Source of the DNA: Planctomycetota bacterium
GTDB lineage: Bacteria > Planctomycetota > PUPC01 > DSUN01
Assembly: GCA_035384565.1 (NCBI GenBank)
Contig: DAOOIT010000002.1
Coordinates: forward strand, 8,579-72,578
Reading direction: 5' to 3'
DNA length: 64,000 nt
The notes under the pieces were generated by a model that saw only the letters and a program-made list of their open reading frames with translations, ran no database searches and was not told the origin of the DNA. The translations under genes and the position numbers were made by a program. Positions 1-25,954 of this stretch are shown here, one piece after another. The stretch's first letter is position 1, and each line of letters begins with the position of its first letter.

Positions 1-827
1 ACCGGGCCGCTCCAGGCGAGGCGGCCATCGCGGCTCGGGGTCGCGCCGCAGCCCCGGAGCCAGCGCACGGCCGTGGCGGCATCGAAGCTCATCGCCGCGA
101 TGTCCAGCACACACCGCCCGTAGCGGTCCATCCCCCCGCTCTGAGCCAGATCGGCCGGGCTGGGCTTCTGGAGGAAGCGGCGAGCCTGCCCGCCCGGGCC
201 GAGGCAGAAGACCCCGTGGCGGCTCGCCTGCTCGGGAGTGGCCAAGCAACCCAGGGCCGTCACGCCTGCCGGGGCCAGGCGCACCTCTGTCGGATCGAAC
301 TCCTTGATGTCATCGCCGGCGGCTACCACGACCTGGCCGCACCCCGGCGGGAGCGCCGGCAGGGCAAGATAGGCGGGCAACTGCCGATCGAACAGCGTCT
401 CCGCTACGCCGCTGTTCGACTCGCCGGGGACGGGCATGAACGCCTTGCCGCACGGCCCATAGGCGGGAAGACGCATCGAGTCCCCTCCCGCATGCACGAT
501 CAGGATACGGAGCCTCTCGAGGGCCGCTTGCCAGGCCGCGGGTTCGCCGAGCTCGGCTTGGCGTCCCGCCAGCTCGCGAGTGATCACTTCCATCAGGCAC
601 GCCACCGTGCTCCCACCGCTGCCGACCCGCCTTCCCGCCGGGTCGGGCACCACCAGCGCCCTGCGGATGCCGGCCAGGAGCCCCAACTCCTCGCGCACGC
701 GCAACTGCGCTTCATATGTGCGCGCCTGCCGCTCGTTCGAGGCGGTGACGATCACGTAGTCCCAGTTGTCGGCGGCGGGCCTCGAGTGGCCCCCCGCGCC
801 ATCGGGCAAGTGCGCCATGGCGCTCAT
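1..827 (-). CDS. Partial CDS (runs off the window start; 3' end not seen): fucokinase-domain-like sugar-1-phosphate nucleotidyltransferase/kinase family protein
   Basis: Not in the ORF track because no stop lies inside the window. Manual minus-strand translation from ATG (revcomp of 825-827) is open to position 1: MSAMAHLPDGAGGHSRPAADNWDYVIVTASNERQARTYEAQLRVREELGLL...GSGGSTVACL...ILIVHAGGDSMRLP. The WD(Y/A)(I/V)VLTA.NE.QA..YE.QL N-terminus is reminiscent of the L-fucokinase/GDP-fucose pyrophosphorylase (Fuc_kinase) family. The start overlaps the stop of the upstream Wzy_C gene (ATGA at 824-827). Confidence 0.45.
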   Translation of the reverse strand, partial: MSAMAHLPDGAGGHSRPAADNWDYVIVTASNERQARTYEAQLRVREELGLLAGIRRALVVPDPAGRRVGSGGSTVACLMEVITRELAGRQAELGEPAAWQAALERLRILIVHAGGDSMRLPAYGPCGKAFMPVPGESNSGVAETLFDRQLPAYLALPALPPGCGQVVVAAGDDIKEFDPTEVRLAPAGVTALGCLATPEQASRHGVFCLGPGGQARRFLQKPSPADLAQSGGMDRYGRCVLDIAAMSFDAATAVRWLRGCGATPSRDGRLAWSGP

Positions 828-2209
828 CCCACCCCTCCACGGCTCCAGGCACTGCGCCCAACCAGGGCGGCCGGTTGGCCGGCCACAGGCAGGCGACAGT
901 GCCTCCCGCTCCCCGGCTGAGGCGGACTCTGACGGGCCCGGGCTTGCCTCAGACTGCGGTCGAGGACCTCGAGATAGGCCAGTATGGGAACGATCACGAG
1001 CAGGTCCACCGAGAACGCAGCAGCCGTAGTCTCGGGGATGCTGCGAACGGTGAAGAAGGCCAGGACCGCGCCCGCTTCAATCAGAAGGGTCCGGTGCTGC
1101 GCCGAGAGCGCTGCCAGACTCCGGAGGCTGCGGAAGAACAGCCGCCACCCGACCACCCACGACGCGACGAAGAAGGCCGTGCCGGCCACCCCGGCCTGCA
1201 TCAGCGCGAGGAGCCAGGTGTTGTGCACGTGTTGGAGGCCCATGTGGAACCTGTCTGCCAGGGGCCCAAGACCCAGCACGGGCGATCGCAGGAAGACCTC
1301 CCAGCCCTCCCGCCACACCTCGGTTCGTCCTGTCATCCGCATCAGGTTCTCGCCGGGTCCGCGCCGGTACACGATGCCCTCTATTCTCTCCGCCATGGTG
1401 GCATCTGCAAGCATGGCCAAACCTGCGACGCCCATCGTGAGGAACAATGCACCCTTGCCTCTCTGCACCGACAGCATGAAGAGAGCGGCGACCACGAAGC
1501 CGATGAGCGGCGTTCGGGCGCGTGTGGCGAGCATCAGCACGATGGACGCACCGCACACGGCCCCCCAGAGCACCCGGCCCGGGCCTCTCGCCTGCCACAT
1601 CCGGCTGAAGGCGAACACGGCCGGCACGGCCGCCAGGCGTCCGATGCCCGTGGACCGCGACATGGTCACTCCCCCCACCGCAGGGATCACATTGACAACC
1701 TCGACGTCCGAAGACCACCAATCGCCCGAGCTGAACAGAACATCCCAGGCCACGATCGCCAGCCCCACGGCCAGGGTGGCCACCATCACCCACGTGAGCG
1801 TGAGAAGCTGAGCACTGCCAGACAACGGATCGCTTCGGGCCACCACAGCCTCCAGCACGATGAACACCGACAGGTACAGCGCCCCCCAGTAGAGGGCCTC
1901 GAATGGCGACGCAGAGAGCAGCGAAGTGCCCAGCATGAACAGGCCATACACGGCCATGAGCCGAACGGGACCCGACCTGCCGAAGACGCCGAGCGTGCCC
2001 CGCCGACGAACGAAGAGATAGGCCCCCACGGCAGCGGCGAACGCCAGCAGCGACCGGGCGAAGTGCAGGTATCCAACCAGCCCGGTCGGATTGCGCCAAT
2101 GCCGAGGGTCGGCCTCGATATTGAGCCAGAGCATCACCCAGAGGAGCAAACTCCAGGACAGCGCTCCTCCCAGGGCGGGTCGTCTTACTGCGGGTGCCGC
2201 AGGCCCCAT
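824..2209 (-). CDS. O-antigen ligase / Wzy_C-domain polytopic membrane protein (WaaL/PglL/Wzy-like)
   Basis: 461-aa multi-transmembrane ORF with a Wzy_C-type loop, ...LGLGPLADRFHMGLQHVHNTWLLALMQAGVAGTAFFVASWVV...; it is the last complete gene of the minus-strand cluster. Confidence 0.65.
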   Translation of the reverse strand: MGPAAPAVRRPALGGALSWSLLLWVMLWLNIEADPRHWRNPTGLVGYLHFARSLLAFAAAVGAYLFVRRRGTLGVFGRSGPVRLMAVYGLFMLGTSLLSASPFEALYWGALYLSVFIVLEAVVARSDPLSGSAQLLTLTWVMVATLAVGLAIVAWDVLFSSGDWWSSDVEVVNVIPAVGGVTMSRSTGIGRLAAVPAVFAFSRMWQARGPGRVLWGAVCGASIVLMLATRARTPLIGFVVAALFMLSVQRGKGALFLTMGVAGLAMLADATMAERIEGIVYRRGPGENLMRMTGRTEVWREGWEVFLRSPVLGLGPLADRFHMGLQHVHNTWLLALMQAGVAGTAFFVASWVVGWRLFFRSLRSLAALSAQHRTLLIEAGAVLAFFTVRSIPETTAAAFSVDLLVIVPILAYLEVLDRSLRQARARQSPPQPGSGRHCRLPVAGQPAALVGRSAWSRGGVG

Positions 2210-2219
2210 CGAGTTTCCC

Positions 2220-3419
2220 TCAGGGCGCCTCGGCGCGTCCCAGGGCGAGCGCTTTCTGATAGACCCACATCAGCCGTTCATAGCACCGGTCGCGCGAGTA
2301 CTCGGTCGTGGCCTTCTGGCGGCCCGCCATGCCCATCTCCCGACACAGGCCAGGCTCGGCCCACAAGCGGCGGAGTCTCTCCACCAACTGGGGCACATTG
2401 CCGGGCTCGTAGAGCAGGCCGGTGACCCCTTCTTCCACGATCTCTGGCAGCGCACCGATCCGTGTGGCCACCACGGGCCGCCCCGCGCACATCGCCTCGA
2501 CCAGCACATTGGGGAAGCCCTCGAACCACTTGCTGCAACAGACCAGGATTCGGGTCTCCCGGTAGAACTCCGCGAGCCGTTCCCCTGACAGAAAGCCATG
2601 GAACAACACGTTCGGAGGGGCGCCCGCCACGGCCTCCGGCATCGCGGAGGCGTCGCCCGCCACGGCGAAGCGAAGCTCGGGCAGCGCCCGGGCCGCCGCC
2701 AGAAAGTCCGCGATCCCCTTCTCGGGGCTGAGCCGCCCGACGAAGGAGATCGTGCTGCCTTCCCCAGGCTCCGCCGGTGGGGCTAGCGCCGACCCCGCGA
2801 TCATGTTCGGGACGACCTCGACCCTGTCGGCGGGGATTCCTCGATCAATGAACCGCCTTCGCTGGAACTCTGACAGCACCACAAACACGGCCACGTTCTC
2901 TCGGATCATCCCCGTGATTCTGGCGAAAGCGTTCCGCAGCGCATACCCGAGGCTCTTCGGCAGGCTGCCGGCGCAGTTCTTCAGCACGCACCACAGCTCG
3001 CCCCCTGTGCCCATGCACTTCTCGCACAGGCGGCCGCCCGAGAGCAAGAGGCCGGTCGGGCAGAAGAGGCGGTAGTTCGGGCAGCGCATGACTATGGGGA
3101 TTCCCCGCCTCCGCACCGGCGCCAGAATCGAGGGCGAGAGCAATGGATAGAGATTCTGAACCTGGACGATGTCGAAGTCGCTCCCGCGAAGGAGTTCAGC
3201 CATCTCGCGGCGCGACCTGAAGCTGTGGATGCCGGAGAAGAACGCCCGCGTCTTGCCTGCCAGGGATCCAGGAATACCCGCGGACGACTTCCCGAACCAC
3301 GTCACGCAATGGCCCCGCTCCTCGAGCAGCCGCGCAATGCTCTCGCACGCATGCTCCTCGCCACTCGGCCTAGCGTAGTCATTGTGAACCAAGAGAACTC
3401 TCACCGCATGGCTCCCCAA
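2220..3419 (-). CDS. Glycosyltransferase family 4 (GT-B, group 1)
   Basis: 399 aa; C-terminal GT4 signature EGFPNVLVEAMCAGRPVVATRIGALPEIVEEGVTGLLYEPGN; 11 nt from the next gene. Confidence 0.85.
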   Translation of the reverse strand: MGSHAVRVLLVHNDYARPSGEEHACESIARLLEERGHCVTWFGKSSAGIPGSLAGKTRAFFSGIHSFRSRREMAELLRGSDFDIVQVQNLYPLLSPSILAPVRRRGIPIVMRCPNYRLFCPTGLLLSGGRLCEKCMGTGGELWCVLKNCAGSLPKSLGYALRNAFARITGMIRENVAVFVVLSEFQRRRFIDRGIPADRVEVVPNMIAGSALAPPAEPGEGSTISFVGRLSPEKGIADFLAAARALPELRFAVAGDASAMPEAVAGAPPNVLFHGFLSGERLAEFYRETRILVCCSKWFEGFPNVLVEAMCAGRPVVATRIGALPEIVEEGVTGLLYEPGNVPQLVERLRRLWAEPGLCREMGMAGRQKATTEYSRDRCYERLMWVYQKALALGRAEAP

Positions 3420-3487: not shown

Positions 3488-5485
3488 CTACTTCCTCAGT
3501 TCGCGCAAGTACCAGTCAGCCCCGAGATGCACATCATCAGCAAGGCCGCGTGGGTACCCTTCGCCGTAGAGAAGGTAATCAGCATCAGTCGGGATGGGCT
3601 GCGTGCCCTTGCCGTAGACGTTCAGCGGGATGATCCTCCTCGTCAGTGTCGCGCCGAAGAGCGGATACTCGTAGCTTCGCGCCGCCAACCACACGGCCAC
3701 TGTCGCGCATTTCGGGACAAGCTCCTCATATCTCCTCATGGCGGGCGCATATCTCCTGTTGTGCGCCATAAGCTGGCTGATCCTATCTCTCCTGAACACC
3801 GACTCCCAGACACTCCCCTGGTAGTGCAGAGCTACCAACGGTCGGTCCGGTCTCACGGTGACAGCAGAGAGGGCCGAGGCACAGCCGATCAGCACGACGA
3901 TGGCAACATAGGCCCGAAGGAACCCCGATCGTGCTCTGAGGCACAAACCCACCACGGGGACCGCGCACACCGCGCAGGGTGGGAAGTACCTGCTGACATC
4001 TGTGCCGTATCTGACACCAAAGGAAACCCCGACAAAGAACAATAGGGAGGCAAAGGAAAACGGCCTGAATCTCCAGTAGCCCATGACCCCGGCTACTGAC
4101 ATAGCCACAGCAATCCATATGAGACCGAAGCCAAGAATCCCCCAATAGGACATGTCCTCATGGATCGTCGGCGGCCTGTTGTAGTTGAACCAGCGGTTTG
4201 GATGGCCGCCGATGGAGAACGGCAGATTCATCCCGATCTTCTCTGCTGCCGTCCTCGGAATCAGCCGCACGAGGACCTGCACTCCGGATACGGGGCTGAC
4301 CGGGGGAAGCCCGTCAAGAGACAGGAACCCAAAACCGATACGCGCGGCGTTCTTCACCCCTTCCCACGCACTGCTACCATAGGAACTGTAGGAACGTTCC
4401 GACACGCCAAGGAGCTGCCGCACCTCTGGGGGACCGATCGGGTTCCCGAACACCCGGTAGTTCTCCAGGTACCCTGAGGGAAGTCCAAAGACAGCGATAC
4501 CAAGAGACACCGAAGCGGCAAAGACAAGCAGGGCCCGCAACCGTCCTCGGGCTGGCTGACAGGTTCCCACAAGGCAGTACAGAAACACTGGCGTCATCGC
4601 TAGGAGGGCAAGCAATGCGGTCACCTTCGTGCCGACGGAGAGGCCCGCCGCCAACCCTGAGAAAGCGAGGTACCTCCATTGGTGGGTTCGCCTGAAGACC
4701 AGGAGGAAGTAGCTAAGTGAGCCAGAGTACGCTGCCACGAGCAAGTCCTGCTGCGTGGTGACCGCCTGGAGCAGGCACTGTGGAAGCAGTGCGAACACAA
4801 GAGAGGCGAATAGGGCTTCCTTCCTGCTGCAACCAAGGCTCGCCGTGATGCCGTAGACGGCGCAGGTAGCAACCCAGTAGGAAAGATACTGAATCAGCTG
4901 GCAAGCGTTCTCGTTCCTTCCAGAAACGAGCAAGGTATACAGCGCAAGCACCGCGTGGTTCTTCGGTGTAGCAATCTGCGCGTAGAAGTTGGCATCATAG
5001 TGCGCGAGGCTACCGTGTTGCAGGTAGTAGGCTACCCTCGCGAGATAGCATGTCATACCGTCCCAGTGAGTGGGCGCTGTGAACAGGGCTACTGCCAAGT
5101 TGGCCAAACCACATGCCGCGGCTGCGGCGAACATTGCGAGAAGGGTGGTTCGCTCATACCATGACCACGACCGCACTTGGGCTGTGAACCAAGAGACGCT
5201 GACCTTGGGCAATAACCTTCTCCGTGGAAGGACCAGTTGCCCGAGCCGACCGTTGACGACAGCAAGCGCGAAGCACAGCGAAGCTGTGATCACGCCATAG
5301 AGTGACCAGTAACCGAGATCACTCAAGCGGTTGATGGCGGACAGAAGGTATCCTCCGAGGACAATCTCTGCGGTCAACAGACAGAAAGAGAGAAGGATGG
5401 TTGCCACATGTCCCCGAGGTCGAAATAGAACGAGCAAGAAGTAGCAGCACAGAAACAGACTCACTGTGGCCAGAATGTTGTGCAA
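3488..5485 (-). CDS. Large polytopic membrane protein, GT-C fold glycosyltransferase-like (ArnT/PMT_2-like)
   Basis: 665 aa with more than 10 predicted TM helices in the N-terminal half and a soluble C-terminal domain; first periplasmic loop HWDGMTCYLARVAYY resembles the D-x-x-x-Y-x-x-A-R loop of ArnT/PMT GT-C enzymes. Lies immediately downstream of a DPM1-like GT2. Confidence 0.5.
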   Translation of the reverse strand: MHNILATVSLFLCCYFLLVLFRPRGHVATILLSFCLLTAEIVLGGYLLSAINRLSDLGYWSLYGVITASLCFALAVVNGRLGQLVLPRRRLLPKVSVSWFTAQVRSWSWYERTTLLAMFAAAAACGLANLAVALFTAPTHWDGMTCYLARVAYYLQHGSLAHYDANFYAQIATPKNHAVLALYTLLVSGRNENACQLIQYLSYWVATCAVYGITASLGCSRKEALFASLVFALLPQCLLQAVTTQQDLLVAAYSGSLSYFLLVFRRTHQWRYLAFSGLAAGLSVGTKVTALLALLAMTPVFLYCLVGTCQPARGRLRALLVFAASVSLGIAVFGLPSGYLENYRVFGNPIGPPEVRQLLGVSERSYSSYGSSAWEGVKNAARIGFGFLSLDGLPPVSPVSGVQVLVRLIPRTAAEKIGMNLPFSIGGHPNRWFNYNRPPTIHEDMSYWGILGFGLIWIAVAMSVAGVMGYWRFRPFSFASLLFFVGVSFGVRYGTDVSRYFPPCAVCAVPVVGLCLRARSGFLRAYVAIVVLIGCASALSAVTVRPDRPLVALHYQGSVWESVFRRDRISQLMAHNRRYAPAMRRYEELVPKCATVAVWLAARSYEYPLFGATLTRRIIPLNVYGKGTQPIPTDADYLLYGEGYPRGLADDVHLGADWYLRELRK

Positions 5486-5570
5486 TCTACTGCCCTAACA
5501 CGCGAAGAGTCTCATACCGGGCCTCGCCCCTGCGCAATCACGTCGGCTCTCGCCGCAACAAACCCGGGGC

Positions 5571-6464
5571 TCACCGGTACTGCGGGCATCGGTCCTCCCC
5601 AGGCTGCGCCCCAGGGTGGTGGCGAACAGGTCCGGGGAGCCTCCAGCGCCGCACGGCAAGGCAGAGGCCCAGGTAACCGCCGATGGTCCGGAGAATGCGC
5701 ATACGGCTCTTGCCGCGGCGGGCGGCGGTGTCGAGGCGAAACGGGACTTCGGAGATGCTGAGGCGCAGGTTCATTGCCTTCTTGAGCATCTCGACGACGC
5801 CCTCGAACCCAGCGCGCTCGATGATTCGAGGGCCGTAAGCAGCCTGGAGGGCAAGGACGGCCCGCCCGCGGAAAACGCGGAAGAAGGAACTCATCGTGTG
5901 GATGCCTGTCATACCCAGGAGACCCCGAAGCACGATGGCGTTCGCCCCGAAGCTCAGGAACCGCCGCCACCAGCTTGTGTGCTCAAACCCGCCACCGTAG
6001 GCGTAGGGTGAGGCGAGGACGACGTCGAGGTCCTCCCGTTCGCACCGTTCGAGCATGCGAAGAAGAGTCTCGACTCGCCCCGTGTTGTCACCCTCCACCG
6101 TGGCGACGAAGTCCGTGGGTTCGAGGTCGCCGGCGAGGTGTTCGAAGGCGGTCCCGAACGCACTCCCTGGTCCCATGTTTCCCTCGTGCTTCAGTACAGC
6201 CAGAGCGAGGCCATGGCCCAGGGCCGCGGCCAGCTCGGGTGTGCCATCGTTGCTCCCATCGTCCACGAGGATGACGCAAGTCCCGTAACGCCCCGCTTGC
6301 GAAGCCGCAAGTTCCCGGAAACTGGCGAAGAGACCCTCGAGATTGGGGGCCTCATTGAGCACCGGTACGATAACGTGCAACGATCGTAACGGGGCGTCCG
6401 CGGCATAGCGCGCACCCTCAAGCATGTTAGCTCTCCGAAGACTCTGTGCTGGGATTCCCATCAA
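5571..6464 (-). CDS. GT2 polyprenyl-phosphate sugar synthase (DPM1/GtrB-like)
   Basis: LHVIVPVLNEAPNLE...CVILVDDGSNDGT...VVLASPYAYGGG: classic GT-A/DXD family 2 similar to dolichyl-/undecaprenyl-phosphate mannose/glucose synthases. True start is probably Met14 (about 6425), giving a 1-nt gap from the upstream gene. Confidence 0.8.
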   Translation of the reverse strand: MMGIPAQSLRRANMLEGARYAADAPLRSLHVIVPVLNEAPNLEGLFASFRELAASQAGRYGTCVILVDDGSNDGTPELAAALGHGLALAVLKHEGNMGPGSAFGTAFEHLAGDLEPTDFVATVEGDNTGRVETLLRMLERCEREDLDVVLASPYAYGGGFEHTSWWRRFLSFGANAIVLRGLLGMTGIHTMSSFFRVFRGRAVLALQAAYGPRIIERAGFEGVVEMLKKAMNLRLSISEVPFRLDTAARRGKSRMRILRTIGGYLGLCLAVRRWRLPGPVRHHPGAQPGEDRCPQYR

Positions 6465-7386
6465 GAACCCCTCGAAGCGCCATGGGGATCATGATTAGGA
6501 ACGCGGGTAGAAACTTCGCTAGTTCGCGCAGCAGCCCATTGAAGAAGAACAGGATCGTATAGGGGAGCAGGCTTAAGAACGCCAGGCGATGGAATGCGTC
6601 GCTCTTCCTGAACGCGACCGTAGACAGAAGGGCAAAGCCCGCCACCTCCACTGTCCATAGTGGGACAATCGATGTCAACAGGTCGTGCACGTTGGAGTTG
6701 GACGCGATGTGGAAGGCAGTGGTGAACTGAGTCGGCTTGGCCCCGTAGTACGCCCGGGTGCCAAGCATAGCGACCGCCCACAGCAGGAGACTCGCTAGAG
6801 CGAGAAGAATCCCGCGTCTGTCCAGCCTCCGTTGGGCGACGAGGTCGATGACATACCACACAATGAGAAAGGCTATCTGCTCGCGATTGAGGGCTCCCAA
6901 AAAGACGATCACGGGCAAGTACTGAACCCTGCCACTTCGGAACAGGGCCAACCCCAGTGTGTAAAACCAGAGCGTGATGAAATCGCCTTCCATGTAGTAC
7001 CCTGTTACCGATAGGGGTATTACAACCTGCAACAGAAGCACGCCCACTATCGCGCCGCTCTGGCCGAAGCCTCTCCACAGGTACCGGTGAAAGCAGATGA
7101 AGATGGCCAGAAACGTAACCATGGAGATCGACGCATAGGAGAAGACATGCTGCATACGCCTGTTCCGCACAACTGTTGAGGCCATGGTTTCGACAACCGT
7201 TCCAAGCAGGGGTTTCAGAATCCTGAACTGATAGGGCGATTGCGCCTGCCCGGTCAGGATCCTGTCAACATGTGCGATACGCTTCTCGACGTTTGGCAAT
7301 ATCACGGTCCTGCAGACATAATATGTCGATATCATCGCCAGCATCACGGGTACTACAAGACCATGTAGCCCTCTCGGTTGCATCGC
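6427..7386 (-). CDS. Polytopic membrane protein of unknown function (candidate flippase/GtrA-like partner)
   Basis: Hydrophobic ORF (MISTYYVC...FLAIFICFHRYLW...LLLQVVIPLSVTGYY...). The listed ORF reaches 7647, but the first ~85 codons are Arg-rich and non-protein-like; start proposed at MQPRGLHG (about 7386). Confidence 0.4.
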   Translation of the reverse strand, partial: AMQPRGLHGLVVPVMLAMISTYYVCRTVILPNVEKRIAHVDRILTGQAQSPYQFRILKPLLGTVVETMASTVVRNRRMQHVFSYASISMVTFLAIFICFHRYLWRGFGQSGAIVGVLLLQVVIPLSVTGYYMEGDFITLWFYTLGLALFRSGRVQYLPVIVFLGALNREQIAFLIVWYVIDLVAQRRLDRRGILLALASLLLWAVAMLGTRAYYGAKPTQFTTAFHIASNSNVHDLLTSIVPLWTVEVAGFALLSTVAFRKSDAFHRLAFLSLLPYTILFFFNGLLRELAKFLPAFLIMIPMALRGVLDGNPSTESSES

Positions 7387-7643: not shown

Positions 7644-8642
7644 TCACACGGCTTCAGTGGGAATCTGGAGGTTCCGCCGGGCTTCGGCGAGGCAGAGGCG
7701 AATGGCGTCCGCCATCGAGTGCTTCGGCTCGTAGCCGAGCAGGGTGTGGGCCTTGGTAAGGTCGGGCCGCCGTCGCATGATGTCTTTGTACCTGCCGAAG
7801 ACTTCCTGGAAGGGGATGAACTTGAGCTTGAGGGGCCTCCCCGTGTCGGCCAGGCGGTGGATGAGGCGCGCGGCGTCGAGGACGCTCATCTCCTCGGGGC
7901 TGCCGAGGTTGATGATCTGGCCGACGGCCCGCTCGTTCTCCATCGCCAGAATGGTGCCCTGGATGAGGTCGTCCACGTAGGCCATCGAGCGGGTCTGGGA
8001 ACCGTCGCCGTGGATGGGCACCTCCTCATGGCGCAGGATCTTGTGAATGAAGATGGGGATGTGGCCGCCGACCCAAGTGAAGCTGGAGCGAGGGCTGAAT
8101 CCGCCGAAGTAGCGGAGGACGACCACGGGCACGGCGTAGTCGTGATGGTAGGCGAACGCAAGCTGCTCGCCGTATAGCTTGGCCACGGCATAGCTCCAGC
8201 GGCGGATGAGGCTGGGGCCGAGCAGCAGGTCGCCGTCCTCGCGGAAGGGCAGGTCGGGCGACATGCCATAGACGTCCGACGTGGAGGCGAAGATGACCTT
8301 CTTCCGCCACATCCGCGCGGCATCGAGGACGTTCTCGGTGCCCTGGGCGTTCACCTTGAGGGTGGCCATGCTCGAATCGGCCTCGGCCACCTTCTTCACG
8401 GCAGCCAGATGCACGAGGGTGTCGGCCTCCCGGGCGAGAATCTTGAGGGTGTCCATGTCCAGAATGTCAACGGGGTAGAACCTGAATGCCTCGTTGGCGA
8501 GCTGATGCCGGATGTTCTCCATCCGGCCGAAGGACATGTTGTCAATACCGATGACGCGGCAGCCGCGCCCGAGCAAGGCATCAAGCAGGTGTGAGCCGAT
8601 CATCCCGGCCACGCCCGTAATCAGTACTACTCCATCTGACAT
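7644..8642 (-). CDS. NAD-dependent epimerase/dehydratase (extended SDR; UDP-sugar 4-epimerase / UDP-glucuronate decarboxylase family)
   Basis: N-terminal Rossmann VLITGVAGMIGSHLLDALL, catalytic YAVAKLYGE (YxxxK), 332 aa. Confidence 0.85.
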   Translation of the reverse strand: MSDGVVLITGVAGMIGSHLLDALLGRGCRVIGIDNMSFGRMENIRHQLANEAFRFYPVDILDMDTLKILAREADTLVHLAAVKKVAEADSSMATLKVNAQGTENVLDAARMWRKKVIFASTSDVYGMSPDLPFREDGDLLLGPSLIRRWSYAVAKLYGEQLAFAYHHDYAVPVVVLRYFGGFSPRSSFTWVGGHIPIFIHKILRHEEVPIHGDGSQTRSMAYVDDLIQGTILAMENERAVGQIINLGSPEEMSVLDAARLIHRLADTGRPLKLKFIPFQEVFGRYKDIMRRRPDLTKAHTLLGYEPKHSMADAIRLCLAEARRNLQIPTEAV

Positions 8643-8817: not shown

Positions 8818-10056
8818 TTAGCCACCCGCAAGCTGTTGATAGATCTCGCTCACCGCCTCAGCCTTGCGCTCGAAGGTGAACAGGCCCGCGCGCTCCAGCG
8901 CCCCGGCGGCCAGCTTCTGCCGCTCGGCCTCGTGCGCCCAGAGATGCCCGAGGGCGTCCGCGAACCGAGAGCAGATGGAGGCCCGGCCCTCGACGGGAAC
9001 CTTCACGCCACACTCCGAGGTCACGACGTCGGCGAAGCCGCAGTGGTCGAGGCACACGACCGGCACGCCCTGTGAGAGGGCCTCCATCACCACCGTCGTC
9101 GTGAGGTCCTTGATGCTGGTGAGCGCGAAAACGTGGGAGTTCCCGAGGAGGGCGATCGCCTGCGGCCGCGGCAGGCGCCCGTGCCACGTGCAGCGGGCGT
9201 CCACGTCCAGCCTTCGGGCGATGCGCCGCCACTCCGTGGTGCAGGGCCCCTCGCCCAGGATGTGCAGCTCCCATCCCACCGAAGCCGGCAGGCGCGCGAC
9301 CGCGTGCAGCAGGAGCGGGAGCGCCTTGCCGGGGTCGTGCGCGCCGCTCCACGAGATGCGGAGCGGCTCGCCGTCGAGCCGAATGGAATGGGCCGCCGCG
9401 ATCGGCTCCGGAGGGGCCGTCTCGCAGATGACCTGGCTGTCCTCGCCATAGTGCCTCTGAATCTCGCGCCGAATGCCTTCGGTGGCGGCGATGATTCCGC
9501 CGCGAGCCCTGGGGAAGGCTCTCCTGGGGCGAGGCAGCCACCTCTTGTGCAGCGTGTTGAGCACGTTCCGGCTGGCGAAATGGACGAGTCCTCGCAAACC
9601 CAGCATCGGCAGGAGCCGCCAGGGGGTGTTCTCCAAGCCGCCGATCGGCCCCCAGACGAACGGCACGTCCAGCCTCCACAGGTAGCCGGGCTCTCGGAAG
9701 GTCACCCACGTGAGCTGGTGCACCAAGTCGAAGCCCGGGTCCCGTTGAAGCTGGAGGGCGAGCCGGTAGGCGTCCCTCTGCCAGCGCCGGCAGGTCCAGA
9801 GCAGGGCCGGCTTCCACAGGCGCGAGAGCCGGAGATAGCGCGTCCTGGGCACATAGCAGAACTGAAGATGGTCCCGAAGCGCCGGATCGCGATGCAGTTC
9901 CGCCTCGATGTTGGCGCGGAAGAGATCGCTCGTGAGGACCAGGAGGTCGTGGTGCCTGGAGAGCGCCTTGACCCAACCCCAGCCCACGCCCGGCTCCGAC
10001 CCGCGCGTCGGGTCGCAGGAGTAGGCCGAGACGAGGACTCTGAGACGCCGTTTCAT
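8818..10056 (-). CDS. Glycosyltransferase family 4
   Basis: Real start at MKRRLRVLVSAYSCDP (ATG 10054-10056; the 573-aa track ORF has a spurious Arg/Gly-rich N-extension); ...GFADVVTSECGVKVP... GT-B C-terminal domain. ATGA overlap with the upstream YdjC gene. Confidence 0.8.
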   Translation of the reverse strand: MKRRLRVLVSAYSCDPTRGSEPGVGWGWVKALSRHHDLLVLTSDLFRANIEAELHRDPALRDHLQFCYVPRTRYLRLSRLWKPALLWTCRRWQRDAYRLALQLQRDPGFDLVHQLTWVTFREPGYLWRLDVPFVWGPIGGLENTPWRLLPMLGLRGLVHFASRNVLNTLHKRWLPRPRRAFPRARGGIIAATEGIRREIQRHYGEDSQVICETAPPEPIAAAHSIRLDGEPLRISWSGAHDPGKALPLLLHAVARLPASVGWELHILGEGPCTTEWRRIARRLDVDARCTWHGRLPRPQAIALLGNSHVFALTSIKDLTTTVVMEALSQGVPVVCLDHCGFADVVTSECGVKVPVEGRASICSRFADALGHLWAHEAERQKLAAGALERAGLFTFERKAEAVSEIYQQLAGG

Positions 10057-10814
10057 CCACCGCTCCGAGCCGAAGGTCCCGTGGCCGCGAGCCGCAGGAG
10101 GTCCGCACAGTCGGCCAACGGACGCTGGCTCAGCCTGTCCACAAGAACCCCCGAGGCGTCGTACATGGGATGGATCATGACTTCCGCGGACTGCGTCCGC
10201 GGCGTCACGCCTCTCCTGGCGAGAAGGTGCCGGTAGTCCTCGGCCGAGCCGAAGTAGTTCGTCCACGCGAGCCCCGCGCGTCTCAGGCGCAGGTTCGCCA
10301 GCTTGCGATAGGCCCAGGTGCCGAGGGATCGGCGCGGCCCGCAGTTCCGGGCGATCCGCACGTGCGGAATGCCCTCCTCGAGGCAGAGCCGCACCACCAC
10401 GGAGGCGATGGCCCACTCCTCGTGCACATGCTCGTGGGAGTCTGCGTGGGAGATCGGAATGCCACGCCTGCGGCACGCGGCAACCTGCGCCCCGAGTTCC
10501 CCCCGCAGCGCCGTCGTTTCGCTCGCGGACAGCCGCCACACGTGGGGGCGTTTGCGCAGGACGAAGGCGCCGTCTTCGTTGCAGAACCGCCGGCAGCGTC
10601 GGATCTCCTCGGTGAGGGGCAGGCCGTCAGTGAGGACGAGATGAACGCCCACGCGATGGGCAAGCCCGCGCTCGTGAGCCAGCTCGCACGCCTCCTCGAA
10701 CCCGGGCATGTTCGGCATGATCGTGGTGTCGGAGCAGTACCCGCGCTCGAAGCTCTCGAGGACGGCCCGGTTCACGTTCCCATCGAGCCCGAAGTCGTCG
10801 GCATTAACGACCAT
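10053..10814 (-). CDS. YdjC/ChbG/HpnK-family carbohydrate deacetylase
   Basis: MVVNADDFGL...HRVGVHLVLTDG... is the hallmark N-terminus of YdjC-like polysaccharide deacetylases; 253 aa. Confidence 0.8.
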   Translation of the reverse strand: MVVNADDFGLDGNVNRAVLESFERGYCSDTTIMPNMPGFEEACELAHERGLAHRVGVHLVLTDGLPLTEEIRRCRRFCNEDGAFVLRKRPHVWRLSASETTALRGELGAQVAACRRRGIPISHADSHEHVHEEWAIASVVVRLCLEEGIPHVRIARNCGPRRSLGTWAYRKLANLRLRRAGLAWTNYFGSAEDYRHLLARRGVTPRTQSAEVMIHPMYDASGVLVDRLSQRPLADCADLLRLAATGPSARSGG

Positions 10815-11730
10815 CGCGCTGGCCTCGGGGCAGCCCGCGGCAGATGCCCGCCAGATTGCCGCAGACCCGTTTGAAGCTCTCGCCCGGCCTTCGGCAGGTC
10901 ACGACTCGCCCGATGGAGAGCAGCATCCTGGCCAGCAGGCCCAGGTAGCACCGTGGCACGGAGAGCCCGTGTTTCCTCACCAGGTAGAGGCGGTTGCGTA
11001 CCTCGAGCTTCCCGAACCGGTAGGCATCGAGTCTTCCTGAAGGCGAAGGGTAGTGGCAGAAGCCCGCCTGCGCGACCACGGCCAGCCTGTACCGCCTGCT
11101 GACGGAGTAACTGAAGTCCACGTCCTCGAGATAGCTGTAGCCGTCGAACCACTCGTCGAAGCGGAACTCGTCAAGCACGGCCCGACGCCACACCGAGGCG
11201 CCGCTCGGCAGCCACTCGGTGAACATCGTCTCGGACACCCTGCCGACGATGGTCTGCCACCCGCTGGGCATGACCACGCCTTTCTCCTTGCTGTAGAGCC
11301 CCAGCCAGGAAGCCAGGCGGGAGGACTTGAGCCAGGATGCGGCTCTCGGCGGGCAGTTCGCCCAGTTGAAGGCCGCGCCGCCGACGTCTGCCGGGGCTTC
11401 CTCCCAGAAGCGCAGCATAGCCTCCATCGCCCCGGGCTCCAGCACGGCGTCGTCGTCCAGGAAACCGATCAGCCCGATGCCGCGGTCCACGGCGTCCACG
11501 CCCGCGTTCCGTTGCCGGGTCGCCGAAGGAGGCAGGTGGCGGACGTAGGCGACGTTCAGCGCGCCACGCTCCGCCGCGACCCACTCGACCGGCTCCTCGC
11601 TCGCATCCACGATCACCACTTGGGAGGGCGGACAGGACTGGGCGGCCAGGCTCGCCAGCATGCGGCGGAGGTCGTCCGGCCGGTCCTTCGTCGCCACCAC
11701 GAGGGCCACCTTGTTCCGGAAGCTGCTCAT
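10804..11730 (-). CDS. Glycosyltransferase family 2
   Basis: Start at MSSFRNKVALVVATKDRPDDLRRMLASLAAQ (ATG 11728-11730), ...VVIVDASEEP..., DXD-like FLDDDAV. Overlaps neighbours by 4 and 11 nt. Confidence 0.75.
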   Translation of the reverse strand: MSSFRNKVALVVATKDRPDDLRRMLASLAAQSCPPSQVVIVDASEEPVEWVAAERGALNVAYVRHLPPSATRQRNAGVDAVDRGIGLIGFLDDDAVLEPGAMEAMLRFWEEAPADVGGAAFNWANCPPRAASWLKSSRLASWLGLYSKEKGVVMPSGWQTIVGRVSETMFTEWLPSGASVWRRAVLDEFRFDEWFDGYSYLEDVDFSYSVSRRYRLAVVAQAGFCHYPSPSGRLDAYRFGKLEVRNRLYLVRKHGLSVPRCYLGLLARMLLSIGRVVTCRRPGESFKRVCGNLAGICRGLPRGQRDGR

Positions 11731-12911
11731 GCGGCCGAATGCCCGCCCATGCGCCTCCTCTGGAGGAACCTCGCCACGGCGTCCCGCATGCCGGCCGTGA
11801 AGCTCGGGATCGAGAATGCCTTGCCCCGCTCGGCCAGGTGCCGGCACAGCTCCTGCTGAAGCTCCGTCCGGCGCAACACGGTGTCAATCTTGGCCACGGC
11901 ATCGTCCAGGCCGGCAAAGGTGAGCAGGGGATGAGCGACAATCTCCGCCTGTCCACCTTCAGAGGGCACGAACACGATGCTGCCTGCCTTGACCAGTTCC
12001 GCCACGGATATGCCAAAGCCTTCCCGCGGACAGGCGTTGATGCCAAAGCGATGGGTGCTGAGCAGCTCCCTCTTCGTCTCCCCGCTGCACGGCCCTCGGG
12101 CTGTAACCCAGCGCCCCTGCTCGGCGCAGAGGCGGCTGACCTTTCGTCCGTACGGGTCGCGCCCGATCGCCCCTGCGATGTGCAGGTGGATGTCGTGGCC
12201 GCGGCTCCGCACGTGCAAGAGCACAGCGATGATGTCCTCGATGCGCTTCTCGGGCGAGATGCGCCCGATGTAGACGAAGCCATGCTCCTTCGCGGGGAAT
12301 GGGACCTCGGGGAAATCCCCCGCCACGGGCGGGTACAGCACGTCGGCCTCCACGCCGTGACGGCGCTTCATCAGGGCGGCCGTCCACTGTGAATTGGCCA
12401 GGAACAGGTTGTCGCGTGCGAAGGGTTCTCGTCCCGATGGCTTCCGAAGCATGCGGGCGCAGGCGAGGTAGCCTCTGCGGAGGGGGTTGTCGCGGTACGC
12501 CAGGCCCGCCCACCCCGGAGCAGGGGGGGTGCACGCCCGTCGGAGCGCCTCGTCCCAGGAGAAGTCCGCAATCAGGTGGATCCCGGGAACCCCGAAATCC
12601 GCGACGTTGTACCCGCTGATGAGCACGTCGAAGTCGGCCGCCAGCGCGCGGCACAGGCGGGCGTGGATCGCTCCACGCCAGGCGGCGAACCGGGCGGTCC
12701 GCCCCAGGAGGAAAGAGAGGGGATGCCGCCTCACGCGGAAGTCTTCCGGGGCCAGCCGCGTCGCGTAGGCCTCATTCAGCCTGGCGATGTCCACTGGCCC
12801 ACAGGTGGCCAGAGTTACGTCATGCTCGTGCCGGAGCTCTTCGATTGCCCACAGCACGGCCGCCTCGGAACCGCCGAGCCGAAGAGAGGGATGGGCGATG
12901 GCAATCCTCAT
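11727..12911 (-). CDS. Glycosyltransferase family 4
   Basis: Start MRIAIAHPSLRLGGSEAAVLW (ATG 12909-12911); C-terminal REGFGISVAELVKAGSIVFVPSEGGQAEIV. Confidence 0.8.
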   Translation of the reverse strand: MRIAIAHPSLRLGGSEAAVLWAIEELRHEHDVTLATCGPVDIARLNEAYATRLAPEDFRVRRHPLSFLLGRTARFAAWRGAIHARLCRALAADFDVLISGYNVADFGVPGIHLIADFSWDEALRRACTPPAPGWAGLAYRDNPLRRGYLACARMLRKPSGREPFARDNLFLANSQWTAALMKRRHGVEADVLYPPVAGDFPEVPFPAKEHGFVYIGRISPEKRIEDIIAVLLHVRSRGHDIHLHIAGAIGRDPYGRKVSRLCAEQGRWVTARGPCSGETKRELLSTHRFGINACPREGFGISVAELVKAGSIVFVPSEGGQAEIVAHPLLTFAGLDDAVAKIDTVLRRTELQQELCRHLAERGKAFSIPSFTAGMRDAVARFLQRRRMGGHSAA

Positions 12912-12915
12912 TGCC

Positions 12916-13719
12916 TCATGATCCGCCGCCCGGAGGCAGTGCCTGGGCATGAGCGCCCGGATGCCTCCGGCAGACGTAGATCACCTCGTCCTCGTCCAGA
13001 GCATGGCGGGCAGCATCCAGGTGGCGAACGTAATCTTCGACTGCGACGGCGAAGCCCGCGTCCTCCAGCCGGCTCCTGTAGTCGAGGCCATAGAGCCTGA
13101 CCTCGTCGGAGAAGCCGAAGTGCCTGGCCCGTTCCTCAGGGGAGAAACCGGGGTCCTCCAGAGTGTGCTCGCGCCGCCGGTCTACATCCACCTGAAGGAT
13201 GGCATAGCCTCCGGGACGGAGCACGCGGTACACCTCGCGAAGCGCGCGGCGGTCATCCTCCACCTGCTCCAGCACGTGGTTGGCGATGACGACGTCGAAC
13301 GTCTCGTCGCCGAAGCCGATGTGTGTGATGGACATGACGAGATCGGGCGCCTCGCACAGCTCGTGGATGAACGAGACCATCAGGTCGGCCGTCACGTACT
13401 CGATGGCCGGATGCCGGCGAATCTCGCGCGCGAGACACCGCTCGGGCGCGAAGTGGAGCACACGCAATCGGCTCCGGAAGAACGCCATCCGGTCCCTCAG
13501 GAACAGGTAGAGCAGGCGGTGCCGCCCGAGAGACAGGCAGGAGGGGCACCAGTCGTTCTCTCTGCCGCCGAAGGGCAGGAACTTCGAGAAGCGATGGCCG
13601 CAGATCGGGCACTCCACCCGGTTGCCGCAGCGGTACCACAGACCCAGGAGCATCCGCTGGCCGCTGCGGAGCCCTCGGCACACGCGTGGCCCCAGGAGCC
13701 GTTTGAGAAGCCTCTTCAT
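12916..13719 (-). CDS. Class I SAM-dependent methyltransferase
   Basis: Start MKRLLKRLLG; ...VLHFAPE... DVVIANHVLEQVEDDRRALREVYRVLRPGGYAIL (Methyltransf_11/23-like motifs). The upstream part of the 456-aa track ORF is Arg/Pro-rich junk. Confidence 0.75.
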   Translation of the reverse strand: MKRLLKRLLGPRVCRGLRSGQRMLLGLWYRCGNRVECPICGHRFSKFLPFGGRENDWCPSCLSLGRHRLLYLFLRDRMAFFRSRLRVLHFAPERCLAREIRRHPAIEYVTADLMVSFIHELCEAPDLVMSITHIGFGDETFDVVIANHVLEQVEDDRRALREVYRVLRPGGYAILQVDVDRRREHTLEDPGFSPEERARHFGFSDEVRLYGLDYRSRLEDAGFAVAVEDYVRHLDAARHALDEDEVIYVCRRHPGAHAQALPPGGGS

Positions 13720-13726
13720 GCGTCGG

Positions 13727-14608
13727 TCAGCCTTCCCCCGCGCTGGCGGGCGTGGCCCCAGAGGGCGTGAAGAAGACCTCGCTCGGCGCCTCGAAAGGGG
13801 CCGCGAAGCCAGGAGGCAGGACTCCGATGTACGGCTTGCCGCACCGCGGGGCGACGGCCTGGCGGTAACAGCGGATCGCCTGACGCTTGGCAGACAGCAC
13901 CGGCGCGATGTCCAGCTTCCAGGCATTCGCCAGGCCCGGCTCGGCGAGCCGGCGAAGGGGCAGTTTGTACCATCCCCAGACCAGGTACCAGTGCACCGCG
14001 CACGGAAAGCCGCTTCGGCGAACGGCTTGCGCCACAATCTCGCTGGCGGCCGCATGGTCGGCCCAGCAGTCCAGAGGATGGGGCGCGTAGACCTCCTGGG
14101 GGGCCGCCTGGCGCAGGACCTCGGCCACCGCGGACACCGCCGTGGCAAACCCCTCCTGCCCGTTGCGGGGCAAGCGGCCGTCGGGCAGTCCAAGCCAGTG
14201 CATGGCCTGGGGGCCGAGCCCCAGGCGCGCGCCCGCCTCGCAGGCCAGAAGACGGCGCGCCCGGGCGATCTCCTCGACAGGCGCACCGCAGCAGCGCTGG
14301 TGCGATGCCTCGCCGCTGGTCAGGAAGGCCACGCCCACGCGGGCGTCGGCCTGAGCCTTGAGGGCGAGAAGTCCTGCCGTGGCGAATACCTCGTCATCGG
14401 GGTGAGGGGCAATCACCAGGGCAGGACCCCCGGGGAGGGCCTCCGGCCTGGCGCGGCGGGCCAGAACCCATTGCAGAACGCGGCGCCTCGGCGCCCCCTG
14501 CCAGGCGCGAAGCTGCGCCACAACTGTGTCGCCCAGCGCGCGTTTGAGGAGGGACTTCACCCCACCCGCCTGCACAGCCGCCTTCGCGGTGAGAGGCAAC
14601 GGACGCAT
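13727..14608 (-). CDS. PIG-L/LmbE-family N-acetylglucosaminyl deacetylase
   Basis: LVIAPHPDDEVFATAGLL...H (the PIG-L zinc-binding HPDDE motif); start MRPLPLTAKAA (ATG 14606-14608), overlapping the stop of the upstream gene. Confidence 0.75.
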   Translation of the reverse strand: MRPLPLTAKAAVQAGGVKSLLKRALGDTVVAQLRAWQGAPRRRVLQWVLARRARPEALPGGPALVIAPHPDDEVFATAGLLALKAQADARVGVAFLTSGEASHQRCCGAPVEEIARARRLLACEAGARLGLGPQAMHWLGLPDGRLPRNGQEGFATAVSAVAEVLRQAAPQEVYAPHPLDCWADHAAASEIVAQAVRRSGFPCAVHWYLVWGWYKLPLRRLAEPGLANAWKLDIAPVLSAKRQAIRCYRQAVAPRCGKPYIGVLPPGFAAPFEAPSEVFFTPSGATPASAGEG

Positions 14609-15444
14609 CACTCGTACTTCCTGAGTCCGCTCAGTTCCAGAAGCACATGGCCGAGGAATCGCGGGCCGTCCAGAAAGTCCCGACGCCAGACCTTTCTGGG
14701 TTCGTGGACGAGGCGCCATAGCCACTCGAACCCGCAGCGGCCCACCCAGGCCGGCGCCCGCTTGACTCTGCCGCTCAGGAACCCGAAGGCCGCTCCGACC
14801 CCGACCGCGACGGGGACCCTCAAGCGTTTCTGGTGCTCGGCAATCCACCTCTCCTGCTTCGGCAGACCGAGCCCGACCCAGAGAACATCGGGCCGGGCCT
14901 CGTTGATCATCCTGACATGGGCTTCATCTTCCTCGGGCGAAACGGCCCCGAAGGGCGGGGAGAACGTGCCGGCCACCCCGTGGTTCGGGTACTCGCGCTC
15001 CAGACGCTGGCGCAGAAGGGAGAGGGTCTCCGGTCGGTCCCCATAGAAGAAGCTGCTGTAGCCGCGTTCGTTTGCGCGCTCGAGGAACGCCCGCATCAGG
15101 TCGGCCCCGGGAATGCGCTGGATGCCGCGGAATCCCTTCAGGCGAGCGACCCAGACGGGCGCAATCCCATCGGGGACCCAGAGATCCGCCGAGTTCAGCA
15201 CGGCCTTGAGGTCCGGGCTCTTGTGCGCTTCCCAGATGCCGTGGAACCCTGTGACCACGATCCGCCGGCACTGGTGTTCGCGCGCCTCGACCCAGCCGGC
15301 CATCTCCTGGATCACCTGGCGAGGGCTCGTCAGGTGCACCCGGGCCCCCAGGATCCTGACCGCCGGAGCGCGCGTTCCTGCGCCGCCGTCTGCGTTCGAG
15401 GCGCGGGCGTGGGTGTCAGGCGATGGGCAAGAGCCTGCGGGCAT
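14608..15444 (-). CDS. WecB/TagA/CpsF-family glycosyltransferase (GT26)
   Basis: ...VTGFHGIWEAHKSPDLKAVLNSADLWVPDGIAPVWVARL...VLWVGLGLPKQERWIAEH... matches the GT26 family (TagA/WecG); start uncertain between 15444 and 15483. Confidence 0.8.
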   Translation of the reverse strand: MPAGSCPSPDTHARASNADGGAGTRAPAVRILGARVHLTSPRQVIQEMAGWVEAREHQCRRIVVTGFHGIWEAHKSPDLKAVLNSADLWVPDGIAPVWVARLKGFRGIQRIPGADLMRAFLERANERGYSSFFYGDRPETLSLLRQRLEREYPNHGVAGTFSPPFGAVSPEEDEAHVRMINEARPDVLWVGLGLPKQERWIAEHQKRLRVPVAVGVGAAFGFLSGRVKRAPAWVGRCGFEWLWRLVHEPRKVWRRDFLDGPRFLGHVLLELSGLRKYE

Positions 15445-16285: not shown

Positions 16286-16326
16286 CGCCCGAACCAGGGG
16301 ACGCACCAGCGGAACTCCCCCATCGC

Positions 16327-18166: not shown

Positions 18167-18775
18167 CTACCGAACCCCGGCCCTGGCCACCACGACAAGT
18201 GTCTTGCAGAACCACTGGCGCAGGTAGCCAGGCAACCTGCCGAGGCCCCAGTATCTGGTGGAGTCCGTTACGTAGTGCATCGCCACCTCCGTGAATCCCT
18301 CCCTCGAGAGAAGATGTCGCAGAGTCCCAGGGCAATACCAGCAGGTGTGCTCATGGTTGAGCGAGACCCTTCCGTACCTCAACACTTCCCAGACCAGTTT
18401 CGGGTAGAAGGCGTTCGGCGTGGTCAAGATCAGCGCTCCCCCAGGCACGAGATGGCGTTTCATGTTCCTCAGGAACAGACCCGGGTTTGACAGGTGCTCG
18501 ATCACCTCCCCCGCGACAATGCAGTCGAACTCCTCGCCAAGCGTCACCATCTCAGCATCGCCGTGGAGAATGCTGTACCCCTTGCGACACAAAGCCTGCA
18601 CACCACGCTCATCTTTGTCGAGGCCAATGACCCGCCGCGCGTGCTTGCGGACAATGTGATGAAGCCACGCGGGGTTTGCTTCCCTGTCGGCATCTCTGCC
18701 AATGCACCCCACATCAAGCACGTTCTTCCCTCTGATGGTCTCCGCAACGATGCTCTCTCTTGTCTCCCTGCCCAT
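18167..18775 (-). CDS. Class I SAM-dependent methyltransferase
   Basis: VLDVGCIGRDAD...DCIVAGEVIEHLSNPGLFLRNMKRHLVPGGALILTTPN (motif I/post-I/II); 202 aa. Confidence 0.8.
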   Translation of the reverse strand: MGRETRESIVAETIRGKNVLDVGCIGRDADREANPAWLHHIVRKHARRVIGLDKDERGVQALCRKGYSILHGDAEMVTLGEEFDCIVAGEVIEHLSNPGLFLRNMKRHLVPGGALILTTPNAFYPKLVWEVLRYGRVSLNHEHTCWYCPGTLRHLLSREGFTEVAMHYVTDSTRYWGLGRLPGYLRQWFCKTLVVVARAGVR

Positions 18776-25300: not shown

Positions 25301-25313
25301 TTCACCATCGGTG

Positions 25314-25952: not shown

Positions 25953-25954
25953 CG

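Follow-up and report, generated by a model that had tools for sequence, protein, structure and literature searches.

We analyzed a window of 64,000 nucleotides (the whole stretch of DNA under study) from a Planctomycetota bacterium, in which a single long glycan cluster of ~31 kb occupies the minus strand at 3-31622; the GC (guanine plus cytosine) content of the window is ~67%. Four adjacent genes of this cluster, here called the cassette, encode an extended short-chain dehydrogenase/reductase (SDR), a small membrane protein (MP), a glycosyltransferase of the GT2 type and a predicted GT-C glycosyltransferase (GTC1), and a further membrane protein that is most probably a GT-C enzyme (GTC2) is encoded elsewhere in the cluster. 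The region probably represents a variable cassette for side-chain decoration in a gene cluster for a surface glycan that depends on an ABC transporter. The genes in question are:

3488-5485, minus strand: GTC1, 665 amino acids (aa), matching PF13231 (PMT_2) at 3.4e-08
5571-6425, minus strand: GT2 of the cassette, 284 aa, matching PF00535 (Glycos_transf_2) at 9.5e-19
6427-7383, minus strand: MP, a 318-aa membrane protein with a predicted GT-C fold, matching no Pfam or NCBIfam family
7644-8642, minus strand: extended SDR, matching the Pfam families GDP_Man_Dehyd and Epimerase
18851-20389 from a Met codon (20431 from a GTG), minus strand: GTC2, a polytopic membrane protein

The four open reading frames (ORFs) singled out in a first-pass annotation of the sequence (GTC1, GT2, MP and GTC2) all lie on the minus strand, and their GC content is biased by codon position as in real genes. 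The co-directional trio it had placed at 3488-5485, 5571-6464 and 6427-7386 is real, and the deviations are confined to a codon or the choice of a start. The MP gene starts with the ATG at 7383, one codon from the 7386 given there; a longer ORF, reaching to 7647, opens with an Arg-rich stretch seen in no homolog. The GT2 gene exists as well, and its most likely start is not 6464 but the ATG at 6425, which is preceded by GGAG and follows the TAA stop codon of MP with a spacing of 1 nt. An identical metagenome contig carries the same gene calls, with a GT2 of 284 aa. GTC2 comprises ~512 aa if translation begins at the Met codon at 20389 and 526 aa with the GTG at 20431 as its start. Upstream of MP lies a gap of 257 bp, and scans for promoters and terminators around it scored no higher than expected from shuffled sequence.

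The cassette was compared with that of a sister cluster, locus L006, which has the same genes in the same order and flanking proteins that are 79-89% identical to those of the window (89% for the Wzy_C protein encoded at 824-2209 and its positional counterpart). In L006 the slot (9494-13962), which is bounded by the conserved GT1 and GT4 genes, contains a 91-aa ORF, a GTC1 ortholog with 55.5% identity to GTC1 of the window, a methyltransferase and a GT2 of 354 aa with a full-length alignment to ArnC. Neither an SDR nor an MP nor a counterpart of the window GT2 was found in the L006 cluster. In both clusters most cassette genes are lower in GC than their immediate flanks; in the window MP has a GC content of 0.55, GTC1 of 0.58 and the SDR of 0.64, whereas GT2, at 0.655, is not clearly lower than the flanking genes (0.66-0.70). 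The lower GC content and the divergence within conserved surroundings point to a variable side-chain slot. The combination of a lipid-linked sugar synthase with a GT-C enzyme would thus be kept while its parts are swapped, and this comparison is the strongest evidence that GT2 and GTC1 act jointly on the glycan of the cluster. A search for signs of a mobile or phage origin detected neither a tRNA nor an integrase gene at the cassette, and direct or inverted repeats at its flanks did not exceed chance. At a further locus (L007), a GTC1 homolog lies beside a methyltransferase-GT2 fusion, a GT87 protein, a PMT/PMT_2 protein and Wzm/Wzt, which indicates that multiple GT-C proteins in Wzm/Wzt clusters recur in these lineages.

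The first gene of the cassette encodes an SDR whose best match in the PDB is human UXS1 (8e-42), followed by the bacterial epimerase-domain protein 6zl6 (3.5e-40) and, lower, the decarboxylase domain of ArnA. Judged by these similarities, the enzyme is probably a UDP-glucuronate decarboxylase (UDP-xylose synthase)-like protein or a 4-epimerase that makes the donor sugar.

Comparison of the cassette GT2 with all PDB sequences yielded matches to polyprenyl-phosphate glycosyltransferases only. The best match was the dolichyl-phosphate mannose synthase (DPMS) of Pyrococcus (5mlz, 7e-11, residues 29-274); three ArnC sequences and one archaeal membrane-associated GT2 were also found. The alignment with the Pyrococcus enzyme reaches chain residues 25-249 and includes the amphipathic C-terminal region, which may correspond to the interface helix. 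The top NCBIfam matches were PpgS (the best), AglJ and ArnC, all far under their equivalog cut-offs. As controls, the other two GT2 proteins of the cluster were compared with the PDB in the same way: one matched SpsA, chondroitin synthase, heparosan synthase and TarP, and the other had no match, so the DPMS/ArnC signal is specific to the cassette GT2. The grouping with DPM1-type enzymes that the first-pass annotation had proposed therefore held, in that GT2 falls among DPM1-, ArnC- and PpgS-type polyprenyl-phosphate sugar synthases and not among processive GT2 enzymes. No hydrophobic segment is present in the protein. GtrB has two C-terminal transmembrane (TM) helices, and these are absent from the window GT2; PpgS and human DPM1 are anchor-less members of the class. 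From its sequence GT2 is likely, but not proven, to be a polyprenyl-phosphate sugar synthase.

For GTC1, a single-sequence search of the PDB returned nothing useful, and the protein was placed by fold comparison. Its PF13231 match scores 34.3 bits against a cut-off of 26.1. An AlphaFold2 model built with 35 homologs (predicted local distance difference test, pLDDT, 91.5; predicted template modeling score, pTM, 0.93) was compared with the PDB using Foldseek, and the best 41 matches were all GT-C proteins (STT3, AglB, ALG9, Pmt4, ArnT, PglB, PimE, Emb, AftA and AftB). Hallmarks of GT-C(A) enzymes are a conserved multi-helix core and a catalytic Asp in the first extracytoplasmic loop, and PimE, ALG6, ArnT and PglB have their catalytic base at this position (PMC12041525). 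In GTC1, Asp142 of the first-loop motif NWDSMTYH lies just past the fourth helix (helix 1 of the GT-C core) and is invariant in the alignment of 35 homologs. The model and the invariant Asp identify GTC1 as a PMT_2/ArnT-like GT-C glycosyltransferase, as the first-pass annotation had expected. Three additional N-terminal TM helices (residues 1-86) are present in GTC1 and in all aligned homologs (34-35), and the C-terminal part is a strand-rich domain of ~120 aa with a predicted extracytoplasmic location. The linker between the N-terminal helices and the GT-C core is positively charged and modeled with low confidence. Homologs of GTC1 occur in Chloroflexota (Anaerolineales, Thermoflexales), Ignavibacteria/Bacteroidota, Verrucomicrobiota, Acidobacteriota, Leptospirales and other groups.

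GTC2 itself has no direct Pfam match, and its NCBIfam match (LA_3751/LA_3752 putative glycosyltransferase, 1.6e-08) is below the cut-off; among its homologs, 23 of 96 carry precomputed PF13231 and/or PF02366 matches. The loop DSVGYIAAARHM, quoted in the first-pass annotation as a mark of a second GT-C protein, is found in the product of 18851-20431, and its DSVGY portion holds the family-invariant Asp and Tyr. Invariant in the family are Asp36 and Tyr40 (SPDSVGY), Glu140 and Arg180-Tyr181. When the GTC2 and GTC1 families were aligned with hhalign, SPDSVGY paired with NWDSMTY (E 7e-05 over 219 columns, with a probability of only 63%). A PDB search with the GTC2 family profile gave nothing useful. 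Taken together, the sequence comparisons suggest that GTC2 is most probably a GT-C protein of a second, PMT_2-related family.

MP is a third and unusually small GT-C-fold protein according to its AlphaFold2 model (pLDDT 93.5, pTM 0.91), which shows ~10 membrane helices in the arrangement of the GT-C core and no soluble domain. Comparison of the model with solved GT-C structures gave listed figures of 17.5 for ALG12, 17.3 for Pmt4, 16.5 for AglB, 15.9 for AftA, 15.5 for AftD, 15.4 for ArnT, 15.3 for STT3B, 14.1 for PIG-M, 11.7-13.0 for PIG-U/GAB1 and 11.0 for PimE. This placement comes from fold comparison only; a search of the PDB with the MP family profile detected no sequence similarity to solved chains, and hhalign comparisons of the MP family with the GTC1 and GTC2 families were not significant. 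The 56 close homologs all have ~310-330 aa. An exhaustive profile search found 1536 representative clusters (50% identity) at E ≤ 1e-3 and 631 at E ≤ 1e-10, nearly all of 300-350 aa and matched over their full length, while a few are fused duplicates of 581-670 aa. Members occur in Chloroflexota, Zixibacteria and other phyla, and Pfam covers the family only by weak matches to PMT_2 (3 of 52) and GT87 (1 of 52). Conserved polar residues are R36, Y52, R55, H80, D135, N167-R168-E169-Q170, R211, N230, E288 and K291. Helix order and the positive-inside pattern would put all of them at extracytoplasmic helix ends, which fits an outward-facing substrate site. Across the wider family, Glu168/169 (in NRE) and Glu287/288 are near-invariant.

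The genomic surroundings of MP homologs differ from those in the window. On four long genomic contigs the homologs are orphans, their neighborhoods lacking genes for GT2, GT-C or glycan proteins, and those at 54 metagenome loci are mostly orphans as well, often with one or two tandem paralogs (e.g., L005/L049, L050, L054, L056, L069 and L071). A GT2 of the cassette type was found near an MP homolog at two metagenome loci only (L043 and L079). The order at L043 (1-5647) is SDR, MP, a UbiA family protein, a B12-binding radical SAM protein and a TM-less GT2, and closely related extended SDRs lie beside MP homologs at L043, L050 and L004. In published pentofuranose systems, UbiA-type enzymes make polyprenyl-phosphoribose (PMC11127046); the MP family might use pentofuranose donors, a link that is drawn from the single locus L043. 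In one Anaerolineales metagenome-assembled genome (MAG; GCA_034436515.1), homologs of MP and GTC1 are located on different contigs, and a conserved MP-GT2-GTC1 trio was not found in other genomes. Since homologs of MP, GTC1 and GTC2 mostly stand alone, the trio is not a conserved module.

The gene order of the surrounding cluster was determined by Pfam and NCBIfam scans. Starting from its head, the remaining genes are:

30741-31622, minus strand: NusG/UpxY-like antiterminator, the leading gene (sub-threshold match to NF033644, 7.9e-18)
29212-30732, minus strand: WecA-like GlcNAc-1-P transferase (PF00953)
28374-29582, minus strand: Wzm (PF01061)
26893-28242, minus strand: Wzt, an ABC ATPase with a C-terminal Wzt_C carbohydrate-binding domain (PF00005 and PF14524)
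25955-26803, minus strand: methyltransferase
25314-26012, minus strand: methyltransferase-like ORF of 232 aa, recognized by sequence motifs only
24185-25300, minus strand: GT2
20480-24632, minus strand: three GT4-type genes
18167-18775, minus strand: methyltransferase
16327-18072, minus strand: asparagine-synthase-like protein
15416-16813, minus strand: FkbM methyltransferase
14608-15483, minus strand: WecG/TagA
12916-14286, minus strand: methyltransferase
11727-12950, minus strand: GT1
10804-11847, minus strand: GT2
10053-10814, minus strand: YdjC
8818-10539, minus strand: GT1
2220-3419, minus strand: GT4
824-2209, minus strand: Wzy_C-domain protein, a candidate WaaL/PglL-type ligase (PF04932, 1.6e-14)
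3-1076, minus strand: fucose-pyrophosphorylase-like gene that leaves the window

Wzm, Wzt with its Wzt_C domain and the PF00953 enzyme together mark an ABC-transporter-dependent glycan assembly pathway, and the premise of an ABC-exported glycan in the first-pass annotation is sound. A hydropathy scan found no Wzx-like protein in the cluster, and its sole Wzy_C protein is ligase-like. Some gene calls deserve comment. The antiterminator has an N-terminal extension of ~135 aa outside the NF033644 model. The ORF at 25314-26012 occupies an apparent 650-bp gap (25300-25955) and overlaps the end of the methyltransferase gene at 25955-26803; when it is counted, the cluster encodes six methyltransferases in addition to Wzt with its carbohydrate-binding domain, a set that suggests a glycan of controlled length with a methyl cap. 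For the GT1 gene at 8818-10539, the longest ORF overlaps YdjC by nearly 500 bp; the gene probably begins further downstream, near 10125, given that its L006 ortholog is annotated with 435 aa.

We propose that the backbone of the glycan would be built on undecaprenyl diphosphate in the cytoplasm, with the WecA-like and WecG/TagA-like enzymes starting it and the GT4 and GT2 enzymes extending it. A methyltransferase of the cluster would probably then cap it, and Wzm/Wzt, with its carbohydrate-binding domain, would export it; a methyl cap would follow the logic of O9a-type terminators and carbohydrate-binding modules (summarized in PMC11127046). For the side chain, the UXS-like SDR would produce the donor, a modified UDP-sugar that may be a pentose. 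On the inner side of the membrane, the TM-less GT2 would couple this sugar to polyprenyl phosphate, and a flippase encoded elsewhere would move the product across. Outside the membrane, GTC1 would transfer the sugar to the exported glycan with Asp142 as the catalytic base, GTC2 may carry out a second, independent extracytoplasmic transfer, and the Wzy_C protein would ligate the finished glycan to its final acceptor. We use "extracytoplasmic" as a safer wording than "periplasmic". The location of the NusG/UpxY-like, WecA-like, Wzm, Wzt, methyltransferase, GT4/GT2, WecG and Wzy_C genes on one strand supports this proposal.

Several observations weigh against it. To begin with, the cluster contains no flippase gene: when every ORF of 70 aa or more was scanned for hydropathy, no small polytopic protein emerged, and the polytopic proteins encoded within 1-32 kb are only Wzy_C, GTC1, MP, GTC2, Wzm and WecA. 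This leaves MP as the sole flippase candidate of the cluster, and the first-pass annotation had indeed taken it for a GtrA-like protein that completes a Gtr-like three-component system by flipping the lipid-linked sugar. MP is polytopic and encoded directly upstream of GT2 with translational coupling (the 1-nt spacing between stop and start). Among the cluster proteins, however, there are zero matches to PF04138, and the model of MP shows the 10-helix GT-C fold instead; on fold, size and synteny MP was rejected as a GtrA-like flippase, and a complete Gtr-like system is highly improbable.

The assignment of GT2 is the next weak point, because the protein is only distantly akin to DPMS and ArnC (45 bits), the DPMS motif DAD aligns to EGD, and the Arg of the DPMS motif GSRY aligns to Pro. 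These mismatches, together with the low NCBIfam scores and with GT-C homologs that mostly lack an adjacent GT2, are what one would expect if GT2 were an ordinary Leloir transferase acting on the backbone linked to undecaprenyl diphosphate and the GT-C enzymes drew on housekeeping lipid-linked sugars. The DPMS alignment, however, covers the whole catalytic domain including its C-terminal half, no ordinary GT2 structure was matched, and the corresponding cassette of L006 clearly encodes an enzyme of the ArnC type, which makes this explanation distinctly unlikely.

Furthermore, most homologs of GTC1 and GTC2 in other genomes adjoin neither a GT2 nor a glycan cluster. A GT2 lies within 10 kb of the GTC1 homolog in only ~6 of 27 loci, and both GTC2 homologs that were examined for their neighbors (n = 2) are stand-alone genes. 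Neighborhood support for the pairing of GT2 with a GT-C enzyme consequently comes from only a few loci: the window, L006, L007, L027 and L021. Such housekeeping-like orphans would also fit GT-C enzymes that glycosylate proteins (S-layer or envelope proteins, as in PMT-type O-glycosylation) and share only their sugar supply with the cluster; the first-pass annotation, too, had named proteins as alternative acceptors. The Pfam matches to PMT_2 and, in some homologs, PMT agree with a protein acceptor, and the Wzy_C protein could be a PglL-type protein O-oligosaccharyltransferase. Yet PMT_2 also covers ArnT-like modifiers of lipids and glycans, so the family name is uninformative about the acceptor. 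GTC1 occupies the sole hypervariable slot of a conserved glycan cluster and co-varies with its GT2, a pattern expected of side-chain seroconversion. Mycobacterial and actinobacterial Pmt enzymes, moreover, rely on the housekeeping synthase Ppm1 and not on a cassette-encoded one. We regard a protein acceptor as unlikely. For the decoration of the exported glycan that we favor, it also counts as a weakness that the identities of sugar and acceptor are inferred.

The last point concerns the active site of MP. By helix order, not by superposition, position 49 in the loop after helix 1 would correspond to the site of the catalytic Asp. It is Gln in the window protein, while Glu or Asp is found in 29 of 38 close relatives (76%) and in only 15 of 52 sequences across the wider family; no other acid of the first loop is conserved in the MP family, in which the canonical catalytic Asp/Glu is thus not kept throughout. 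Two roles are conceivable for MP: it may be a further transferase, with an active site that departs from the canonical one, or it may serve the TM-less GT2 as its partner in the membrane. As a partner, a non-catalytic MP would anchor or activate GT2 (compare DPM3-DPM1 and GacJ-GacI) or hand on its lipid product. The missing membrane anchor of GT2, the stop-to-start coupling of the two genes and the Gln in place of the Glu/Asp of most close relatives agree with such a role, and non-enzymatic GT-C-fold proteins are known in PIG-U and GAB1 (PMC12041525). On the other hand, MP homologs almost never lie beside a GT2 (2 of ~30 loci), the Anaerolineales MAG has its MP and GTC1 homologs on separate contigs, and invariant polar residues at predicted outer-face helix ends indicate a substrate site on the outside instead of a cytoplasmic docking surface. 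A partner role is therefore rather unlikely. The other possibility is that MP represents a large, unrecognized family of minimal GT-C enzymes, active with an acid outside the first loop and adding a pentose together with the SDR and GT2. We put this forward tentatively, as an idea that is worth considering but will more probably fail than hold. If true, CAZy would gain a new GT-C family, and no smaller GT-C enzyme would be known.

Three-component systems for extracytoplasmic glycosylation of O-antigens have been described for Klebsiella O2 (gmlABC, ABC-dependent) and Citrobacter youngae O1/O2 (ORF12-15), and in the C. youngae pentofuranose system an SDR sets the identity of the sugar (PMC11127046). 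The window resembles them in combining a Wzm/Wzt cluster, with a carbohydrate-binding module in Wzt, with its own putative lipid-linked sugar synthase and a GT-C enzyme, in having an SDR that could set the sugar, and in a cassette that varies between otherwise near-identical clusters (here the window and L006). In contrast to these systems, it contains no gene for a GtrA or MATE flippase, the synthase would be a TM-less GT2 and not a UbiA-type PPPRS, the GT-C enzyme is PMT_2-like, and three predicted GT-C-fold proteins are encoded in the cluster instead of one. The GtrA-GtrB-Gtr(type) systems of Shigella and Salmonella share the proposed logic, a GT2 that makes the undecaprenyl-phosphate sugar and a GT-C enzyme that adds the sugar outside the membrane, whereas the window has no GtrA member, its cassette is not phage-borne and the acceptor pathway is ABC-dependent, not Wzx/Wzy-dependent.

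Similarity to the Arn pathway (ArnA decarboxylase domain, ArnC, ArnT) lies in the co-directional arrangement of a UDP-GlcA-decarboxylase-like SDR, a putative ArnC-class GT2 and an ArnT/PMT_2-class GT-C enzyme. That pathway adds 4-amino-4-deoxy-L-arabinose (L-Ara4N) to lipid A; the window cassette, by contrast, has no ArnB, formyltransferase domain, ArnD or ArnE/F, and lipid A is an unlikely acceptor because the cassette is embedded in a polysaccharide cluster. The mycobacterial PpgS (Rv3631)/Rv3632/Rv3779 and streptococcal GacI/GacJ/GacL systems likewise use a TM-less or weakly anchored GT2 synthase, but their partner membrane proteins have 3-4 TM helices, unlike MP with its predicted 10-helix GT-C fold. 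In these systems a GT-C enzyme decorates an ABC-exported wall polysaccharide (PMC8035078), and several independent GT-C decorations are found on the ABC-exported rhamnans of the GacI/J/L, lactococcal and S. mutans systems (PMC8035078, PMC11754754). Other compact GT-C(A) proteins are the enzymes PimE, ALG3 and GPI-MT-I/PIG-M and the non-enzymatic PIG-U/GAB1. MP shows no detectable sequence similarity to any solved chain, its family does not conserve an acid in the loop after helix 1, and its 318 aa compare with 383-479 residues in the modeled chains of PimE, PIG-M, ALG3 and ALG12.

The strategy of combining a lipid-linked sugar synthase with a GT-C enzyme for an ABC-exported glycan was thus already known, and the first-pass annotation had overstated its case in calling the architecture uncommon, since GT-C decoration of ABC-dependent glycans from within their clusters is published (PMC11127046, PMC8035078, PMC11754754). 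Mildly new are the three GT-C-fold proteins, the missing flippase gene and a compact GT-C-fold family with non-canonical conservation. The window would extend the known strategy to an uncultured lineage with essentially unstudied envelope glycans, its decoration genes lying in a swap-in/swap-out slot as in the serotype variation of pathogens. For annotation it implies that a polytopic protein beside a GtrB-like gene is not automatically a flippase, and the small GT-C-fold family, for which no Pfam model exists, is a reasonable biochemical target.

Downstream of the glycan cluster, genes for sugar uptake and glycan degradation lie mostly on the plus strand (32266-59961). Besides two large proteins (845 and 1018 aa) without a Pfam match, they encode a solute-binding protein, a permease, an F5/8-type-C protein, ThuA, two GFO_IDH_MocA oxidoreductases, GH123, GH5, two PQQ-like beta-propellers and a DUF4838 domain fused to an FGE-sulfatase domain.

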